Assembly: GCA_050737735.1 (NCBI GenBank)
Contig: JBOHYM010000031.1
Location: 18,132-82,131 of the forward strand
DNA: 64,000 nucleotides
Direction: 5' to 3'
DNA from: Rhodanobacter sp.
Lineage (GTDB): Bacteria; Pseudomonadota; Gammaproteobacteria; Xanthomonadales; Rhodanobacteraceae
Each line of letters starts with the position of its first letter. The stretch's first letter is position 1. Made by a program: the position numbers and the translations under genes. Positions 22,814 to 52,126 of this stretch are shown in pieces. The notes under the pieces were generated by a model, which saw only the letters and a program-made list of their open reading frames with translations, was not told where the DNA came from and did not search any database.

Positions 22814-22821
22814 GATGATTC

Positions 22822-22910
22822 GGGAGATGGCATGCCTCCCGTTTCGCGGAGGCTTTCGGCACCGTGGAACCAACCACCTCCCGCCTTGCGTCGAGGTTGA
22901 TGATGCCTGC
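22822..22910 (+). ncRNA. Fluoride riboswitch (crcB RNA motif)
   Basis: GGGAGATGGCATGCCTCCC (P1 plus pseudoknot strand), AACC-ACCTC..GAGGT-TGATGATGCCTGC 3' signature; directly upstream of crcB. Confidence 0.9.
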
Positions 22911-22989
22911 ACCACCGGCTTCCGGCGGGGCAGGCGTGCCTGCCACCGCGGCAACCGGACACTCATAGAAATTGTCAGGAGACGCGCTC

Positions 22990-33952: not shown

Positions 33953-33976
33953 CCGCGAATCCGTCAACCTGAACGT

Positions 33977-34002
33977 AAAAATGTGACGCAAATCACATTT
34001 TT
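33977..34002. promoter_or_regulatory. CRP/Clp-type binding site
   Basis: AAAAATGTGA-CGCAAA-TCACATTTTT: perfect 10-bp arms around N6, matching the TGTGA-N6-TCACA consensus; 130 bp upstream of the first TIR gene. Confidence 0.8.
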
Positions 34003-34132
34003 GCATGTTATTGTCATGAAATCGCAGCCACCTGCCAAGCCACGACGACGGCCCGGCACCTGATTTGCGGCCGAGTGGGTGGGGACTTCCCGGCAAGGGA
34101 GTGCGCAACTTCGTGCGGGAGTGCGGTGCGTC

Positions 34133-36409
34133 ATGACGCAGGCCTCCGTGATGCCGGCTTTCCGGTACCGCGCCTTCATCAGCTACAGCCACCGGGACAA
34201 GTCCTGGGCCGACTGGCTGCACAAGGCGCTGGAAACCTATGCGGTGCCGAAGCGGCTGGTCGGCCAGACCACGGCGGCCGGCGTGATCCCCAGGCGCCTC
34301 GCGCCGATCTTCCGCGATCGCGACGAGCTGGCCAGCGCCACCGACCTCGGTCGCAAGGTCAACGAGGCGCTCGGGCAGTCCGCGGACCTGATCGTGATCT
34401 GCTCGCCGCACTCGGCCACGTCGCACTGGGTCAACGAGGAAGTGCTGGCGTTCAAGCGGCTGGGCCGCAGCGAGCGCATCTTCTGCCTGATCGTGGACGG
34501 CGAACCCAACGCCAAAGACCTGCCAGGCCGCGCGGCGGAAGAGTGTTTCGCCGAGCCCTTGCGCTACACCGTCGATGCGAATGGCCACGTGACCCACGTA
34601 CCTACCGAGCCGGTCGCCGCCGACGTGCGCCCCGGCAAGGATGGCAAGACCAACGCCAAGCTGAAGCTCATCGCCGGCATGCTGGATCTTGGTTTCGACC
34701 AGTTGAAGCAGCGCGAGCTGCAGCGTCGCACCAAGCGCATGACCGCGATTGCTGCACTGGCCATGGTGGTGATGACGCTGACAATCACGCTGGCGATCGC
34801 GGCGCTGATCTCACGCCATGATGCCGTCATTGCGCAGCACAAAGCCGTGGTCGCGCAACAGGCTGCGGAGCGCCGCCAGAAGCAGGCCGAAGGCCTTGTC
34901 GGGTTCATGCTGGGAGATCTCAATGAAAAGCTGGCGCAGGTGTCGCGCCTGGACATCATGCAAAGCGTCGACGACAAGGCGATGGCGTACTTCGCTGCGT
35001 TACCTACTTCCGATGTTACCGACGAAACGCTTGAACAGCGCGCCAAGGCATTGGAGAAGATCGGCAGTGTCCGTTTCGCGCAAGGACATCTCGACGCAGC
35101 ACTGGAATCGTATCGGGCAGGCGCGAACCTTGCCAGCACCTTGGCTCATGAGGCACCCGAGGATTCAACGCGACAGATCGCCTACTCACGAATGCTCACC
35201 TTTATTGGCATGGCCCACTGGAGCCAGGGCAGGCTCGACGCCACACAACAAGATTTTGAATCAGCGCAGCAGGCACTCCGGGTATCGAAATCCGGAGTAA
35301 AAGATAATCTGCCGCAGGTGTTCCAGGTAGCCATGCTCGATAACGACATCGGCCATGTGCTCGAGGCGCGTGGTCAACCGGAGGCCGCGGAAGCCGCGTA
35401 CCGCAACGCCATGGTGCTGTCACAAAAGCTGGTCGCGGCCAAGCCCGACAACACCGACTTTCTCTTGCAATTAGGAATAGCACACAACAACCTCGGCAAA
35501 ATGGCGTTGATGCGCGGCGACCTGGCAACGGCAATCGCCGAATACCGCGCCGACGATGCCATCGAATCGAACCTGTCCGCACGAGATCCGAAAAACAATG
35601 ATCAACTAGCCAACACATTTACGGTGCGGGCAATCCTCGGCCGCACCTTGGCCTTGGCCGGCGAAGTTGATGCGGGTATGCGCGACTTGCAGCAGGCAAT
35701 AGATATAGCGACCCGGCTGTCCACGCTGGACCCATCGCAGACGCAAATTCAGGAAAATCTCGCGCTGTATCAAATGCAATTGGGCCGGCTTCTGCGTCTT
35801 GGGAACCAGCTACCCAAGGCAGTCGTGCTAACTGAACGCGCTTTGCAGGGGTTTGCAACGCTGACCAAGCAGGATCCAGGAAATGCTGAATGGAAGCGAG
35901 AACTCGCCGAAGTGCAGACCGAACATGCGGCTCAGACGCTTTCCGGTGGCGACAAAATGGAGGCGCAAAAGCAAGCACAAACTGCGCTGGACATGCTCGA
36001 GTCACAGTTTGCCAAGCAGCCAGACAACCACGCCCTACTGCTGGTGACTACGAACGCCAAGCTTCTGCTTGCCGATGTCATTGGCAATGCGCCATCGGCG
36101 CAGCGGTTGCGGAAAGAAGCACTCATCATGGCGCAAGCGCCGAGAGGCAGCCCTGGCGATCCACGCCTGCTGGCACTGCAGGTTAAGGCGCTGCTAGCAC
36201 TCGGAAAGACGACCGAAGCGACGACCGTCATCCGGAACCTATGGAAAGCTGGCTATCGCGACCCGGCGTTGCTCTCGGTACTGCACCGTGCGGACGTCGA
36301 CTACCCGGTTAATGCCCTGTTCGCGAAGCGCATCGCACAACCCACGCAAGTCGATACCACCCATCTCGCCCGCCCGACGACAGCTGCGCAAACGGTTGAC
36401 ACGCGGTAG
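34133..36409 (+). CDS. TIR-TM-TPR protein, copy 1
   Basis: TIR motifs AFISYSH, IFRDRDEL, LIVICSPHS, WVNEEV (catalytic Glu position); basic patch QRELQRRTKR then one hydrophobic helix; long helical TPR-like C-terminus. Confidence 0.88.
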   Translation: MTQASVMPAFRYRAFISYSHRDKSWADWLHKALETYAVPKRLVGQTTAAGVIPRRLAPIFRDRDELASATDLGRKVNEALGQSADLIVICSPHSATSHWVNEEVLAFKRLGRSERIFCLIVDGEPNAKDLPGRAAEECFAEPLRYTVDANGHVTHVPTEPVAADVRPGKDGKTNAKLKLIAGMLDLGFDQLKQRELQRRTKRMTAIAALAMVVMTLTITLAIAALISRHDAVIAQHKAVVAQQAAERRQKQAEGLVGFMLGDLNEKLAQVSRLDIMQSVDDKAMAYFAALPTSDVTDETLEQRAKALEKIGSVRFAQGHLDAALESYRAGANLASTLAHEAPEDSTRQIAYSRMLTFIGMAHWSQGRLDATQQDFESAQQALRVSKSGVKDNLPQVFQVAMLDNDIGHVLEARGQPEAAEAAYRNAMVLSQKLVAAKPDNTDFLLQLGIAHNNLGKMALMRGDLATAIAEYRADDAIESNLSARDPKNNDQLANTFTVRAILGRTLALAGEVDAGMRDLQQAIDIATRLSTLDPSQTQIQENLALYQMQLGRLLRLGNQLPKAVVLTERALQGFATLTKQDPGNAEWKRELAEVQTEHAAQTLSGGDKMEAQKQAQTALDMLESQFAKQPDNHALLLVTTNAKLLLADVIGNAPSAQRLRKEALIMAQAPRGSPGDPRLLALQVKALLALGKTTEATTVIRNLWKAGYRDPALLSVLHRADVDYPVNALFAKRIAQPTQVDTTHLARPTTAAQTVDTR

Positions 36410-36467
36410 TGCCACAAGGCGTTGCGGGCCGCCTCTCATGCCTTGCATCAATCTCCCGGAGCAGATC

Positions 36468-36851
36468 ATGCCGAATGTAACTCTCAACGTGACACTCAAG
36501 GATGGCAACCTCGACGTCGATCAGGCAGGAAATGGAAACCAGATGGGCCACGGTCAGACGACCACGATCTCCTGGCACCTCACGACAGCCGGGGGAACGT
36601 TCAATGCACTCGACGCCAGCAACAAGGGATTTTCTTGGATCCAGACGCCGCCCGATAACGTGTTCACCGGGCTGCAGTTGTTACAAAACGGAAAAATCCA
36701 GATAACGGACAACAACACCGACCCTGGCGGCATCAACTCTGCAGGCAGCTGGATTTACCAGCTGTGGGCAACCATCAATGGCACCCAGTATTCGACCATA
36801 GCGACCACCCCGACGGGAACTGTTACCAATCCAAACATCAAAAATAACTGA
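36468..36851 (+). CDS. Small beta-rich hypothetical protein (DP-EP/DUF1888-like), partner 1
   Basis: 127 aa, SD GGAG, no signal peptide; starts MPNVTLNVTL, ends TNPNIKNN. Confidence 0.75.
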   Translation: MPNVTLNVTLKDGNLDVDQAGNGNQMGHGQTTTISWHLTTAGGTFNALDASNKGFSWIQTPPDNVFTGLQLLQNGKIQITDNNTDPGGINSAGSWIYQLWATINGTQYSTIATTPTGTVTNPNIKNN

Positions 36852-36931: not shown

Positions 36932-37002
36932 ATCCCGTAGCAGATATCTGAAAATCAGAAGGACTCCCAGTCAGGGAACCGTCGCAACAAGTGCGAGATG
37001 TC

Positions 37003-39147
37003 ATGACGCAAGGTTCGGGGTCACCAGCGTTCCGCTACTACGCCTTCATCAGCTACAGCCACCAGGACAAGGCCTGGGCCGACTGGCTGCACAAGGCGCT
37101 GGAAACGTACGCGGTGCCGAAACGACTGGTCGGCCAGACCACGCTGGCCGGCGTGATCCCCAAACACCTCGCACCGATCTTCCGCGACCGCGACGAGCTG
37201 GCTAGCGCGCACGATCTCGGCGACAAGGTCAACCAGGCGCTGGCACAGTCGGCCAACCTGATCGTGATCTGCTCGCCGCGCTCGGCTGCCTCGCGCTGGG
37301 TGCAGGAGGAAGTGCTGGCATACAAGCGCCTCGGACGCAGCGAGCGAATCTTTTGCCTGATGGTGGATGGCGAGCCCAACGCCAGTGACCTGCCCGGCCG
37401 CGATACCGAAGAATGTTTCGCCTCCGCGCTGCGTTTCCAGCTCGACCCAGACGGCCAACCCACCACGCAACACGCCGAGCCGATCGCCGCCGATGCTCGA
37501 TCTGGCAAGGACGGCAAGGGCAACGCCAAACTGAAGCTGATCGCCGGCTTGCTGGATATCGATTTCGATCGCCTGAAGCAGCGCGAATTAAGGCGGCGCA
37601 ACCGGCGCCTGGCCGCGGTCACCTCGATGGCGCTGGTGGTGATGGCGTTGACCACAACGCTGGCCGTGTTCGCACTAATCTCACGCCACGACGCCCGGCG
37701 ACGCCAGGCCCAAGCCGAAGATATCCTGGGTTTCATGCTCGGCGATTTGCGCGGCAAGCTCGCTACCGTCGGCCGGCTCGACCTGATGGTGGCAGTCGAC
37801 GACAAGGCCACCGCGTACTTCGGCACACTGCAGCCACGTGATCTCAACGAACACGCGCTGGAGCAACAGGCCCGATTGTTGACCGGCATCGGCCAAGTGC
37901 GCTTGGACCAGGGTCACGACGACAAAGCCATGCTGGCGTTTCGCGACTCCTATGCGCGCAGCAGCGAACTGCTCAGGCGTCAACCTGGAAACGGCCAAAG
38001 ATTGTTCGATAGGGCCCAGGCCGAATACTGGATTGGGTTCGCCTTCTGGCGCCAAGGGCAACTGGACAATGCGGAAACCTGGCTACGGCGTTATCGCGAC
38101 AGCGCGCTAAAGCTCGCTGCGATGGATCGAACGAATTTCGCCTGGCAGCGTGAGGTTGCCTACGGCCAGGAAAACCTGGCCACACTGGATCTGGCCCGCG
38201 GCCTCGACAAACCGGCCGAGCGCATCTTCCGCGACGCGTATGAGCTTTATCTTGGCTGGATGAAAACGCACCCGCACGACACCGGATTGCGTGACGAAGC
38301 GGCCAATATTGCCTCCTATCTGGGCAGCCTGGCGATGCAGGACGGCCGGCTTGCGGAGGCGCGCGCTCGTTACGCGGAACAGGTAACTGACATTTCCGAC
38401 AACCGTGCCGCAGAACCCGACAATGCACAATGGGAGTCAGAGTGGCCGGACGCGAGCGTGTTCCTGGCGGAGGTACAGGCTGATACGGGCGACGCTGCCG
38501 ACGCCCGTCGCGGTTCGGCAGATGCGACAGCCCTGGACGAAATGCTGGCCAAGCAGGACCCCACCAACAAAACCTGGCAGCTACAGCTTGGCAAAGGCTA
38601 CTGGTGGCTGGCACGCCTCGATTCGCGTGCGGCACCGGATCAAGCCTGGAGCGAGGCGCTCGGCGCGGAACGCATCTTCGCCGCCACGCACGCGTCAGAA
38701 CCGAAGGACAGTCTCGCCCTGCACTGGTTGGCGAAATCGCAGGTACTGCTGGGCGAACTGGCGTGGCGACGTGGTGAGAGTGCCGAAGCAACGACTTGGC
38801 TGTCTCGCGCCAACGCCGAGCTGGCACCAGCCCTCGCCACCCAACAAAACAAGAACGCTTACCGGTTGCTGCCGCCAGAGTTGCACCTGCTCTTGGGCGA
38901 CGTTGCAGCGCAACGCGGCGATGACGCAGCCGCACGTGCTGCCTGGTCCGTTGCCGAACAGCAACTGCGCGAAGGTACAAATCCGCCGACATTCGATCAC
39001 CTCGACCTGCTCGTGCGCGTCTTGCTGGCGCAGCATCGAGACGCCGTGGCGGCGCCTTATCTAGCAAGACTGAAGGCAAGTGGGTACGTGCCGCTGTACC
39101 CGTGGCAGGAGGGGCCCGGCAGCCAAACAATGGCTGAATCTCGATGA
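37003..39147 (+). CDS. TIR-TM-TPR protein, copy 2
   Basis: TIR nearly identical to copy 1 (WVQEEV), basic patch RELRRRNRR, TM LAAVTSMALVVMALTTTLAVFALI, divergent TPR-like C-terminus. Confidence 0.88.
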   Translation: MTQGSGSPAFRYYAFISYSHQDKAWADWLHKALETYAVPKRLVGQTTLAGVIPKHLAPIFRDRDELASAHDLGDKVNQALAQSANLIVICSPRSAASRWVQEEVLAYKRLGRSERIFCLMVDGEPNASDLPGRDTEECFASALRFQLDPDGQPTTQHAEPIAADARSGKDGKGNAKLKLIAGLLDIDFDRLKQRELRRRNRRLAAVTSMALVVMALTTTLAVFALISRHDARRRQAQAEDILGFMLGDLRGKLATVGRLDLMVAVDDKATAYFGTLQPRDLNEHALEQQARLLTGIGQVRLDQGHDDKAMLAFRDSYARSSELLRRQPGNGQRLFDRAQAEYWIGFAFWRQGQLDNAETWLRRYRDSALKLAAMDRTNFAWQREVAYGQENLATLDLARGLDKPAERIFRDAYELYLGWMKTHPHDTGLRDEAANIASYLGSLAMQDGRLAEARARYAEQVTDISDNRAAEPDNAQWESEWPDASVFLAEVQADTGDAADARRGSADATALDEMLAKQDPTNKTWQLQLGKGYWWLARLDSRAAPDQAWSEALGAERIFAATHASEPKDSLALHWLAKSQVLLGELAWRRGESAEATTWLSRANAELAPALATQQNKNAYRLLPPELHLLLGDVAAQRGDDAAARAAWSVAEQQLREGTNPPTFDHLDLLVRVLLAQHRDAVAAPYLARLKASGYVPLYPWQEGPGSQTMAESR

Positions 39148-39258
39148 CCTGCGCGACCCCATCCAGAGACACAGCCGACCTTCTATTCATCGGACCGGTG
39201 GACCGCGCGTCCGTCGTTTGGGCCCGGAGCGGCCGAACCTCAAGCGGGAGCAATGGCA

Positions 39259-39669
39259 ATGCCAAACAGCAATATCACAGTGGTGCTGGATGTTTGCAAC
39301 TTCCACAACAACGGCGGTGGGTGGACCAATATAAGTGCCGCTAACGGCAGCGCCTACAGCTACAAATATTCCGGCGGCAACGACCCCGACCACAGCAATG
39401 CGAACGGGCATATAAGGCACACCGTCAGCCATGGTGTCGCCACCATCGAAGTGCAGTTGCAATGCGACCCACGTTACGTGTTCAACCAAACCTCCTTCGA
39501 GGGAAATAACCAAGGCCAACTAGGATGGGTAGGCACCGAACCGAGAAGACGGACAATCACGAATCAATGCACCCAGGCGATCACTGCGAATTACAAGATA
39601 AAAATCAGGGATACGACTGCCGGCACTACTCTCGATTGCGATCCAGCGATCAGAAATGTACCGGCCTAG
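39259..39669 (+). CDS. Small beta-rich hypothetical protein (DP-EP/DUF1888-like), partner 2
   Basis: 136 aa, SD GGGAG, no signal peptide; starts MPNSNITVVLDV, ends DCDPAIRNVPA. Confidence 0.75.
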   Translation: MPNSNITVVLDVCNFHNNGGGWTNISAANGSAYSYKYSGGNDPDHSNANGHIRHTVSHGVATIEVQLQCDPRYVFNQTSFEGNNQGQLGWVGTEPRRRTITNQCTQAITANYKIKIRDTTAGTTLDCDPAIRNVPA

Positions 39670-39879: not shown

Positions 39880-40086
39880 ATGACGCAGCCCCTCTCGATA
39901 CCGGCTTTCCGCTATCGCGCCTTCATCAGCTACAGCCACCAGGAAAAGGCCTGGGCCGACTGGCTGCACAAGGTGCTGGTAACCTGCGCAAGCCCGAAGC
40001 GGTTGATCGGCCAGACCACGATGGCCGGCGTGATCTGCTGGCATCTCGCGCCGAGCTTCCGCGACCGCGACAATGCCAACCACTGA
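39880..40086 (+). pseudogene. Truncated third TIR copy (68 aa)
   Basis: MTQPLSIPAFRYRAFISYSHQEKAWADWLHK..LAPSFRDRD; homology stops abruptly before the catalytic Glu; the stop overlaps the next gene by 14 nt. Confidence 0.85.
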
Positions 40087-41797
40087 CTGCCCAACTCCGA
40101 TCTCGGTGCCGCTGGTGATCGGCGTCACCAGCCACCGCAATATTTCCGCAAGCGAAATCGAGCCGATCCGGCAACGTGTGCGAGACTTTTTTGCCCGACT
40201 GAAGCGCGAACTTCCCGAGTTGCCGCTGGTGCTGCTGTCGGCCCTGGCCGAGGGCGGCGATCAGCTGGTGGCGCAGGAAGCGCTCGCTGCCGGTGCGCGC
40301 CTGCTGGCTCCGTTGCCATTGCCGCGGGAACTGTACGCGGACGACTTCACCGATCCGGCAGCACGCGTCGGCTTCGACAGCTTGTGTGCACAGGCCGAAG
40401 TCGTGCAGTTGCCGCTGCGGGCGGGGCAATCGCTGCACGATGTCAGTTCGCCCGGCACCGCGCGCGACCGCCAGTACGCCCAGGCCGGGGTCTACATCGC
40501 CAGCCATTGCCACATCCTGCTGGCGATATGGGACGGCAAACCCTCGACCCGGATCGGCGGCACCGCTCAGATCGTGAAGTATCACCTGAGCGGTGCGATG
40601 CCCGGCCAGAGCGATCGACGCCGCAGCGCACGTCACGAACTGGGCGCCGGCGACGAACACCTGCTCTACCATATCGTCTGTTCGCGCAATGCTGCCGACG
40701 GCGCACCCGCCGCCGGCCTGGAGCCGTTGCAGACGCTGTGGCGCAGCACCGACACGGCGGTGGCGACGGACCCGGGCAAGCCGGCCGAGTTCCATCGGAT
40801 GTTCGCGCACATGGCCGAGTTCAATGCCGACTGCGCGAAGTACGCTGCCGCCATCGATGCCGCAGCACCAGAGGCACGTGATGCGCCGGCAGATGTCTCG
40901 ACGAACGTCGACCGCCTGTTCCACGCCGCCGACTGGCTGGCGATCCATTTCCAGAAACGGGTACTGCTGGCGCTGCGTTCGACCTATACGCTGGCCGCGC
41001 TGATGGGTATTGCGTTCACCTGCTACGCGCATCTGCCGCAACAGAACTACCTGATCTACCTGTTCCTGCTGTTGTTCGCGCTTGGCGCCTTCGTGGCCGT
41101 GCTCGCCCGTCGCCGCGACTGGCATCGCAAGTATCTGGACTATCGCGCGCTGGCGGAGGGCCTGCGCATCCAGTCGTACTGGCGGCGCGCGGGCATCTCG
41201 GTGAACAGCGAGCATGAATTCGCGCATGACAACTTTTTGCAGAAACAGAACGTCGAACTCGGCTGGATCCGCAACGTGATGCGTGCCTCCGCCCTGTATC
41301 CACCCACCGGCCCGGCAGAACCCGCATCGCCCGAGCTGGCGCGTGTCATTGCGGAATGGGTGGGCGAATCGGGCAAATCGGGACAACTCCATTACTACGA
41401 ACGCAAGACCGCCGAGCGCACCGGCCTGCACCATGTCACCGAGACGATCGGATCGATCAGCCTGTGGGGTGGCATAACCATCAGTGTGTTCCTCGCCGCG
41501 TTCGTGTTCAGGCTTTCGGATGAAGCGAAAACCATCCTGGTGACGGTGATGGCGGTGCTGTCGATCATCGCCGCGGTGCGCGAGGCCTATGCCTACCGCA
41601 AGGCCGACAAGGAACTGATCAAGCAGTACCGCTTCATGCAGCGCATCTTCGCCAGCGCGCGCGCGGCGCTGGACCGCACGCATGATCCGGTAGAGCAGCG
41701 CGAGATCCTGCTCTCGCTGGGCGATGCGGCGCTGACCGAGCACGCGGAGTGGACGCTGATGCAGCGCGAGCGGCAGGTGGAACAAGGCAAGCTGTGA
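40073..41797 (+). CDS. YpsA-like SLOG domain fused to two 2TM (SLATT/DUF4231-like) effector modules
   Basis: IGVTSHR, SALAEGGDQL and LAIWDG..GGTAQIV SLOG motifs; four TM helices in two pairs; WHRKYLDYRALAEGLR, GQLHYY and EHAEW motifs. Confidence 0.75.
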   Translation: MPTTDCPTPISVPLVIGVTSHRNISASEIEPIRQRVRDFFARLKRELPELPLVLLSALAEGGDQLVAQEALAAGARLLAPLPLPRELYADDFTDPAARVGFDSLCAQAEVVQLPLRAGQSLHDVSSPGTARDRQYAQAGVYIASHCHILLAIWDGKPSTRIGGTAQIVKYHLSGAMPGQSDRRRSARHELGAGDEHLLYHIVCSRNAADGAPAAGLEPLQTLWRSTDTAVATDPGKPAEFHRMFAHMAEFNADCAKYAAAIDAAAPEARDAPADVSTNVDRLFHAADWLAIHFQKRVLLALRSTYTLAALMGIAFTCYAHLPQQNYLIYLFLLLFALGAFVAVLARRRDWHRKYLDYRALAEGLRIQSYWRRAGISVNSEHEFAHDNFLQKQNVELGWIRNVMRASALYPPTGPAEPASPELARVIAEWVGESGKSGQLHYYERKTAERTGLHHVTETIGSISLWGGITISVFLAAFVFRLSDEAKTILVTVMAVLSIIAAVREAYAYRKADKELIKQYRFMQRIFASARAALDRTHDPVEQREILLSLGDAALTEHAEWTLMQRERQVEQGKL

Positions 41798-49110: not shown

Positions 49111-49185
49111 TGGTGGGCGGTACAAGGATCGAACTTGTGACCCCTACCATGTCAAGGTAGTGCTCTACCGCTGAGCTAACCGCCC
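49111..49185 (-). tRNA. tRNA-Val (GAC)
   Basis: GGGCGGTTAGCTCAGCGGTAGAGC..CTACC-TTGACAT-GGTAG..GTTCGATCC..CCGCCCACCA; cloverleaf with encoded CCA. Confidence 0.97.
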
Positions 49186-52049: not shown

Positions 52050-52126
52050 TGGCGCCCGAAGCTGGACTCGAACCAGCGACCCCCTGATTAACAGTCAAGT
52101 GCTCTAACCAGCTGAGCTATTCGGGC
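52050..52126 (-). tRNA. tRNA-Asn (GTT)
   Basis: GCCCGAATAGCTCAGCTGGTTAGAGC..CTTGA-CTGTTAA-TCAGG..GGTTCGAGTCC..TTCGGGCGCCA. Confidence 0.97.

Follow-up and report, generated by a model that had tools for sequence, protein, structure and literature searches.

Nucleotides made by TIR domains control immunity in bacteria, plants and animals, and new types of Thoeris are still being defined. Burroughs, Zhang, Schaffer, Iyer and Aravind reportedly predicted SLOG-SLATT and TIR-SLATT conflict systems in 2015, and the logic they proposed is said to combine a nucleotide-generating enzyme, a SLOG sensor and a pore made of a two-transmembrane (2TM) domain, SLATT, named for its association with SLOG. YpsA-like SLOG domains have been linked to the sensing of variants of cyclic ADP-ribose (cADPR), and SLATT has been predicted to act as a permeability effector regulated by ADP-ribose derivatives (PMC9503650). 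The combination of a TIR protein and a SLATT protein has been validated as type VII Thoeris, with canonical cADPR as its signal (bioRxiv 10.64898/2025.12.03.692087). Tables S1/S2 of the same work (Yirmiya et al. 2025, bioRxiv 10.64898/2025.12.03.692087) also give "SLOG and 4TM" as a putative Thoeris effector type, so that an effector of this kind stands on the list of predicted Thoeris effectors without a working experimental example. Here we describe a protein of SLOG-SLATT architecture that is encoded in a 64,000-nucleotide (nt) stretch of DNA from Rhodanobacter sp. (assembly GCA_050737735.1, contig JBOHYM010000031.1, positions 18,132 to 82,131 of the forward strand), which we refer to as the window. 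The gene for this protein, the effector, lies at 40073-41797 (+) of the window. Its 574-amino-acid (aa) product combines a SLOG domain with two SLATT-like 2TM modules, as judged from the open reading frame (ORF) call, Pfam, an AlphaFold2 (AF2) model and Foldseek.

We estimate a probability of roughly 60% that the effector is part of a Thoeris-like, TIR-driven signalling cassette, whose function would most likely be anti-phage or other conflict defence. The new element is a conserved association of the effector with two partners, a small beta-sandwich protein and a TIR-TPR sensor that is membrane-anchored and receptor-like. The only sequencing run that contains the locus is a DNA run from a cave metagenome.

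The effector and its domains

The effector ORF is real and intact, confirming the observation from which this work started. The effector has more than 3,500 homologues, of which the best 120, found in Rhodanobacter, Dyella, Metallibacterium and related metagenome bins, are 70-92% identical to it. With so many homologues, and with 6,073 clusters at 50% identity for the N-terminal domain alone, the observation is far beyond chance, and the sequences place the effector in a large family of the predicted kind. The effector clade is also a large and well-conserved natural set, with many members in culturable Rhodanobacter, Dyella and Lysobacter. As a reference for the ratio of nonsynonymous to synonymous substitution rates (dN/dS) we used the locus of a relative, L006, where the effector is 90% identical. 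Over 573 codons the effector has a dN/dS of 0.16, indicating purifying selection.

The SLOG core occupies aa 13-175 (40109-40597, +) and forms a Rossmannoid beta-alpha sandwich in the AF2 model, for which 21 homologues served as input. In 10-residue blocks, the predicted local distance difference test (pLDDT) score is 74-91 over aa 31-150, 82 for aa 11-20 and 67 for aa 21-30. When the model of the N-domain was compared with the PDB using Foldseek, YpsA (2NX2) came first, with an E-value of 1.8e-3, a probability of 1.0 and a TM-score of 0.58 normalised on the target. The top 15 matches consist of YpsA, DprA (from four species) and the DprA-like ShosA; the molybdenum cofactor (Moco) carrier protein follows at ranks 16, 18 and 23 and the LOG-like proteins TM1055/TT1887 at ranks 25 and 35. 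All of these proteins belong to the SLOG superfamily. The outcome that the original prediction had set against itself was a non-SLOG fold, and the fold comparison gave SLOG structures instead. We also examined a diverse set of 81 relatives that are 27-51% identical to the effector, 8 of which match the Pfam family PF10686 YAcAr ("YspA, cpYpsA-related SLOG family") with a best E-value of 1.8e-5. The link to SLOG is made by fold comparison and not by PDB sequence search: when PDB chain sequences were searched with a profile of close homologues and with a diverse profile, no relative of the N-domain was found.

The most conserved columns of the N-domain, both in close homologues and in the 81 diverse relatives, are G17, T19, H21 and R22; L58, A59, G61 and D63; W153, D154 and G155; and G162, G163 and T164. 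These columns form loops at the C-terminal edge of the sheet, and they coincide with the motifs IGVTSHR, SALAEGGDQL and WDG..GGT..V that had been picked out at the outset, all of which are present. The first of these loops, G17-V-T-S20-H-R22, follows strand 1 (40121-40138, +; homologue alignments and codons). G61-G62-D63 follows the strand at aa 52-55, and the diverse relatives all have G61, while conservation of D63 among them is at least 90%. This element fits the G-x-D/E substrate-binding signature that has been described after strand 2 for the YpsA clade (PMC6459960), with the equivalence to YpsA G53/E55 judged by position. The insert that follows the SLOG core (aa 170-237) is poorly modelled, yet it holds R205, which is invariant in the alignment of the 81 relatives.

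Given the Foldseek matches to SLOG proteins, the YAcAr matches in relatives and the conserved loops, the N-domain as modelled is a SLOG domain of the YpsA/DprA-like kind, and not YpsA proper. The label "YpsA-like" in the original prediction therefore holds in its broad clade sense and fails in its narrow one: the Pfam family of YpsA proper (DUF1273/PF06908) has no match in the query at E<=0.1 and is not among the families matched by the 81 relatives.

The membrane part of the effector contains four transmembrane (TM) helices by hydropathy scan, at aa 297-315, 327-345, 461-479 and 484-502. They agree with the helices of the AF2 model and with the two TM pairs predicted earlier, and each pair is followed by a conserved helix, which is the 2TM hairpin layout of SLATT. 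Module 1 (aa 282-385; 40916-41227, +) holds TM1 and TM2 followed by an invariant helix, W350...YLDYRALAEGLR. It matches Pfam DUF4231 at aa 282-369 with 28.1 bits, above the gathering score of 24.7, and SLATT_3 with 23.1 bits, nearly at gathering. Module 2 (aa 437-574; 41381-41794, +), recognised by SLATT_6, SLATT_1 and hydropathy, holds TM3 and TM4, then the helix YAYRKADKELIKQY and a C-terminal EHAEW...RER motif. The NCBIfam matches of the effector, to SLATT_1 and SLATT_3 in module 1, are all below threshold. Among the 81 diverse relatives, DUF4231 is matched in 36, SLATT_3 in 22 and SLATT_1 in 19, and in one relative the segment equivalent to module 2 matches SLATT_1 with 29.8 bits against a gathering score of 26.3, covering nearly the whole model. 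The assignment of module 2 as SLATT-like rests on such SLATT_1 matches in relatives because the internal-repeat test is weak: hhalign aligns module 1 with module 2 in register, with a probability of 23%.

Conservation within the membrane part is concentrated after the TM helices, where YLDYRALAEGLR in module 1 and YRKADKELIKQY in module 2 are invariant among close homologues. The motifs "W..YR..AE" and "E..W", proposed as typical of SLATT/DUF4231, are indeed conserved: W350...Y357 R358 A359 L360 A361 E362, which falls within the DUF4231/SLATT_3 match, does not vary among close homologues, and the C-terminal E556...W560 is nearly invariant in the 81 diverse relatives and lies at the end of the SLATT_1-like match. 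No transporter families are matched by the TM part. The membrane part is SLATT-like and not a transporter, as had been proposed: DUF4231 exceeds its gathering score in module 1, as does SLATT_1 in the equivalent of module 2 from a relative. Of the two tandem SLATT-like modules, the first is firmly supported, and the case for the second rests on transitive homology. The SLOG domain, the linker between the modules and the C-terminus are all predicted to be cytoplasmic.

Longer members of the family are also found. In Woeseiaceae, P0123 and ~60 similar proteins of about 780-870 aa (exemplified by L092, 6001-8511) carry ~250 extra N-terminal residues that represent a second, weaker match to the SLOG N-domain, and at L092 a 528-aa gene lies between this longer effector and the TIR-TPR gene. 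The effector family is present twice in one Woeseia genome bin, as different copies, 42% and 41% identical to the query, on separate contigs (L079 and L086).

The sensors and the cassette across genomes

We surveyed 80 related loci with 40-76% identity to the effector. A gene of TIR-TM-TPR type adjoins the effector in 50 of the 80 loci, and many of the others have too little flanking sequence for a partner to be judged; homologues of the small protein follow the sensor gene in 22. The order sensor, small gene, effector is common to Rhodanobacter, Metallibacterium and the nearest relative of the window. Genomes of Rhodanobacter and Metallibacterium have this cassette as a single unit in unrelated neighbourhoods, and L006 has the same layout as the window, including a truncated TIR gene. 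The genomic position and the flanks of the cassette differ in almost every species. Nine further loci of the 80 hold a homologous TM-TPR protein with no detected TIR domain, 4 of which end at a contig edge. More distant members (31-35% identity) adjoin stand-alone TIR genes, TIR-NB-ARC-TPR, kinase-TIR or nucleotide cyclase genes.

Five full-length partners that lack TIR have the TM-TPR body joined to an nSTAND1 head or a DUF4062 and nSTAND1 head (L029 3569-6772; L088 3539-6757; L050 1527-5198; L055 695-4465; L064 1708-5292). 

In the window, the genes of the cassette lie on one strand, with two units of sensor and small gene, a TIR stub and the effector last. The sensor proteins are 718-776 aa long and consist of an N-terminal TIR domain that is joined through one strongly hydrophobic helix to about 500 TPR residues. 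Sensor copy 1 (34079-36409, +), defined by Pfam and hydropathy, has its TM helix at aa 226-244 and a TPR region of ~530 aa. Its ORF opens with GTG at 34079, and its start is likely the ATG at 34133, by analogy with copy 2 and the stub ("MTQ..."). Sensor copy 2 (36991-39147, +) is a TIR-TM-TPR paralogue defined by Pfam and by a direct repeat, D1, which occurs in three copies at spacings of 2870/2877 nt; copy 2 lies 2870 nt downstream of copy 1 and has a dN/dS of 0.17 relative to L006. Copy 1 matches Pfam TIR_2 with 46.3 bits, ThsB_TIR with 33.8 bits and several TPR families, and copy 2 matches TIR_2 with 52.9 bits, ThsB_TIR with 33.8 bits and TPR_4; both TIR families are above gathering in both copies. 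The TIR motif S115-x-W117-x-x-x-E121 is conserved in at least 90% of 63 partner proteins. With the catalytic Glu conserved and TIR_2 and ThsB_TIR above gathering, the TIR domains of the window are predicted to be catalytically competent.

Exactly one TM helix is found in 57 of the 63 partner proteins. In the 15 residues that flank this helix, lysine and arginine (K+R) number 5.4 on the N-terminal side versus 3.1 on the other. The TPR region of the sensor is predicted to face the periplasm and the TIR domain the cytoplasm, since the charge distribution follows the positive-inside rule and since an N-terminal TIR or ATPase domain of ~200 residues that lacks a signal peptide must be cytoplasmic.

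Each sensor is accompanied by its own version of a small protein. Small protein 1 (127 aa; 36468-36851, +; ORF, AF2 model and homologues) is paired with sensor copy 1, and small protein 2 (138 aa; 39253-39669, +; ORF and alignment) with sensor copy 2; the two are 23% identical to each other. Small protein 1 is 100% identical to P0271 and has 12 homologues, all of which are named hypothetical. Its AF2 model is a nine-strand beta sandwich (pLDDT 78.5), and no signal peptide is visible in its sequence. Foldseek gives weak, generic Ig-like matches (E>0.1), and no Pfam, NCBIfam or PADLOC match was found. Small protein 2 has 96% nt identity to its orthologue at L006 and a dN/dS of 0.35.

Between small protein 2 and the effector lies the third TIR gene stub (39880-40086, +), recognised as the third copy of repeat D1 and by a Pfam TIR_2 match over the first strand only. 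Its 68 codons comprise 64 TIR codons that end in "...FRDRD", followed by 4 foreign codons and a stop. The break falls exactly at the effector start codon, and the stub overlaps the effector ORF by 14 nt. The stub is also found at L006 (9808-10014) in the same layout, where comparison gives a near-neutral dN/dS of 0.64 versus 0.16-0.17 for intact genes. It is not a gene but a decaying remnant of the tandem array; on the same ratios we rejected a functional mini-gene that is translationally coupled to the effector.

Several further features of these loci were observed. The first sensor pair (window 34079-36851 versus L006 3648-6323) is only ~60% nt identical, against ~90-96% for the second pair, the effector and the flanks, which suggests allele replacement or rapid diversification of one unit. 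Short ORFs lie between the small gene and the effector at L001 (7632-7859) and L004 (7539-7865). They are ruled out as TIR stubs and have only the C-terminal T-x-P-x-IKN tail (…TNPNIKNN) in common with the small protein; they may be remnants of duplicated small genes. In one Rhodanobacter lineage (L001-L003, 9734-10321, -), the effector has a gene for a PnuC-type nicotinamide mononucleotide transporter as its immediate downstream neighbour, which may be a coincidence or a link to NAD salvage. In the window, an AT-rich palindrome with a 12-bp stem, GTAAAAATGTGA...TCACATTTTTGC, lies at 33975-34004 (+) between a penicillin amidase gene and sensor copy 1 and could be a terminator or an operator. 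A scan for promoters and terminators over 33.8-42.1 kb found no more sites than shuffled sequence. Elsewhere in the window, a fluoride riboswitch match at 22814-22916 (+) scores 34.4 bits, right at its gathering threshold, and two tRNA genes lie at 49114-49185 (-) and 52053-52126 (-).

The proposed signalling model and its rivals

In the model that we propose, the sensor would be held in the membrane by its one computed TM helix. The TIR domain would lie on the cytoplasmic side and the TPR region on the opposite side, an orientation suggested by the positive-inside rule and by the ATPase-headed variants. On a trigger, the TIR domain would cleave or rearrange NAD+ to yield a nucleotide derived from ADP-ribose, as the catalytic Glu and the ThsB-type TIR match suggest. 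This nucleotide would bind in the crevice of the cytoplasmic SLOG domain at the GVT(S/G)HR, LAEGGD, WDG and GGT loops and R205. Binding would cause the two SLATT hairpins to oligomerise or open, the inner membrane would become leaky, and the cell would be arrested or die. A pore is proposed as the output because this role of the SLATT family has been predicted, and partly tested, in CBASS and type VII Thoeris. The idea of a nucleotide-gated pore, already part of the original prediction, gains strong support from a context on which that prediction had not drawn, namely the conserved adjoining TIR genes; the gating step itself is presumed.

A role for this cassette in defence is favoured by a component logic like that of Thoeris, by the published work on TIR-SLATT, "SLOG and 4TM", SLATT and YpsA-like SLOG proteins cited above, by the duplication of the sensors, the modular exchange of their heads and the divergence of sensor pair 1 between close relatives, and by the mobility of the cassette's position among species. 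Several points weigh against the model. The first 280 residues of the query have no match to a curated SLOG profile at E<=0.1 in Pfam or NCBIfam, module 2 of the query stays below the SLATT thresholds (SLATT_6, E 0.009; SLATT_1, E 0.038), and no PADLOC model matches the effector. The model does not account for the role of the small beta-sandwich protein, and the support for the effector family comes from sequence and modelling. No enrichment next to other defence genes was found: the 126 neighbours are housekeeping genes among which only HNH (2) and an extra TIR (3) recur, and there are no recurrent defence or mobile-element genes beside the cassette among them. The identity of the effector follows taxonomy, from Rhodanobacter through Dyella, Frateuria, Rudaea, Dokdonella, Lysobacter/Luteimonas and Arenimonas to Woeseiaceae. 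Finally, the two systems of "SLOG and 4TM" type that are reported as tested failed to protect E. coli against phage (Yirmiya et al. 2025, bioRxiv 10.64898/2025.12.03.692087).

Some of these points favour a rival in which the cassette would serve physiological outside-in signalling and not phage defence, with the TPR region sensing an envelope or extracellular cue, the TIR domain making a messenger and the SLOG-SLATT protein acting as a regulated ion channel instead of a suicide pore. The agreement of identity with taxonomy suggests long residence in the lineage, the cassette lies outside defence islands, and all intact genes are under purifying selection. The single sensor TM helix with its K+R bias, together with the interchangeable ATPase heads that must be cytoplasmic, would place the TPR region in the periplasm. 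We nevertheless regard this explanation as unlikely. The cassette occupies a different position in nearly every species; duplication, swapping and strong divergence of sensor genes are seen between close relatives, with copy 1 at 60% nt identity against ~90% for the rest of the locus; and nSTAND1 NTPases, which are typical of conflict systems, take the place of some sensor heads. Mobility, divergence and head exchange are all hallmarks of conflict systems, and every characterised system that joins TIR to SLATT or SLOG has so far been anti-phage.

A membrane anchor is reported for none of the Thoeris sensors in the cited Thoeris literature, and it is a possibility that TIR signalling is here triggered from the periplasmic side. 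Were the TPR region indeed periplasmic, the cassette would provide the first case of receptor-like topology in a bacterial TIR pathway, and one would have to ask which envelope cue triggers TIR signalling. Taken furthest, the arrangement would amount to a bacterial "Toll-like" outside-in pathway in which a single-pass membrane receptor, with its TPR sensor in the periplasm and its TIR domain in the cytoplasm, makes a nucleotide messenger that gates a SLOG-SLATT channel, a reading that we put forward tentatively and hold to be rather unlikely. If it were true, the trigger for TIR signalling would act at the envelope, either ahead of foreign DNA entry or in its absence, and the small beta-sandwich protein paired with each sensor would be a specificity or inhibitory subunit.

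A different objection to the nucleotide-gated pore is that SLOG domains can also be enzymes, not sensors. The SLOG domain might be, for example, an N-glycosidase or hydrolase that acts on a nucleotide or on the TIR product, and the four helices a mere anchor or a part with a separate function. LOG-clade SLOG domains are nucleotide N-glycosidases, and signal-processing SLOG enzymes are allowed for (PMC6459960; PMC9503650); the invariant H21, R22, D63 and R205 could be catalytic. However, in fold the domain comes closest to YpsA and DprA, which are non-catalytic, and not to LOG, the acid of the LOG-type "GGxGTxxE" motif is absent from the effector, which reads GGTAQIV, and the TM part, a conserved SLATT region whose post-TM helices are invariant, is more than a plain anchor. 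An enzymatic SLOG domain is thus improbable in our judgement.

The original prediction also drew attention to the serine at position 20, encoded by AGC at 40130-40132, where the loop is usually TGHR, and proposed that this change either alters ligand specificity or marks early decay. The usual form holds in the effector's own wider family: in 131 representatives of 50%-identity clusters that cover the loop, the residue is Gly in 108, Ser in 16 and Ala in 7. Alignment of homologues, the check proposed at the outset, indicates that Ser is conserved, since it occupies this position in 120 of 120 close homologues (119 GVTSHR and 1 GVASHR). Among the 80 loci, it is fixed at every locus of at least ~54% identity, which form the Rhodanobacteraceae clade, and recurs in a few Lysobacter-like loci; Gly dominates in the more distant loci, with single cases of Cys and Ala. 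The Ser codons are AGC in 37 loci and AGT in 13, with no others, and therefore fit a single G-to-A origin followed by long retention. In the strand-1 loop, Ser20 is a conservative replacement for the usual Gly and has become fixed in the lineage. Since the same TIR-TM-TPR type of partner accompanies both Gly and Ser forms of the effector, nothing points to a changed ligand specificity, and Ser20 may have a small tuning effect. The natural G/S/A/C variation in this loop offers a ready mutational series for ligand-binding work. As for early decay, the notion that Gly-to-Ser is the first step in the loss of a disused gene can appeal to the single base that separates AGC from GGC and to the decaying TIR stub directly upstream, and it is refuted by Ser in all 120 close homologues and every Rhodanobacteraceae-clade locus, by the use of both synonymous codons, and by an intact ORF with a dN/dS of 0.16.

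Comparison with known systems

YpsA of Bacillus subtilis (PDB 2NX2) resembles the effector in fold and in its G-x-D/E signature, which corresponds to G61-G62-D63. It differs in being a soluble, single-domain protein that is tied to cell division and has neither a membrane part nor a TIR partner, and the effector lacks a match to its Pfam family.

Among the Thoeris systems, ThsA of type I (SIR2-SLOG) is alike in that its SLOG domain receives a cADPR-type signal made by TIR. The output of ThsA is a SIR2 NADase, whereas that of the effector would be a membrane SLATT pair, and ThsA is not among the top 50 Foldseek matches of the effector N-domain. Type III Thoeris reportedly combines several TIRs with a SLOG effector (van den Berg et al. 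2024), and on that description it resembles the window, where two intact TIR genes and a stub accompany one effector. Type VII Thoeris, which consists of the TIR protein ThsB and the SLATT effector ThsH, likewise joins a TIR producer to a SLATT membrane effector that is thought to oligomerise on binding its ligand. ThsH has a SLATT annotation only, and its ligand pockets have been modelled between SLATT protomers; in the effector, by contrast, two SLATT modules are joined to a dedicated SLOG domain at the N-terminus.

The "SLOG and 4TM" type has the arrangement closest to that described here, with a SLOG domain and four TM helices beside a TIR gene, and its authors predict that it responds to a TIR-made signal. 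Members of this type are known by their IMG gene identifiers, and the likeness to the effector is one of architecture only. Their TIR partners appear, in the listed domain excerpts, to be short stand-alone proteins, and no TIR of "FISYSH" type is found in the part of Table S1 of Yirmiya et al. 2025 that was searched. The cassette of the window differs from that type in that its TIR domain is fused through a TM helix to a TPR region of ~500 aa and is accompanied by the gene for a small beta-sandwich protein.

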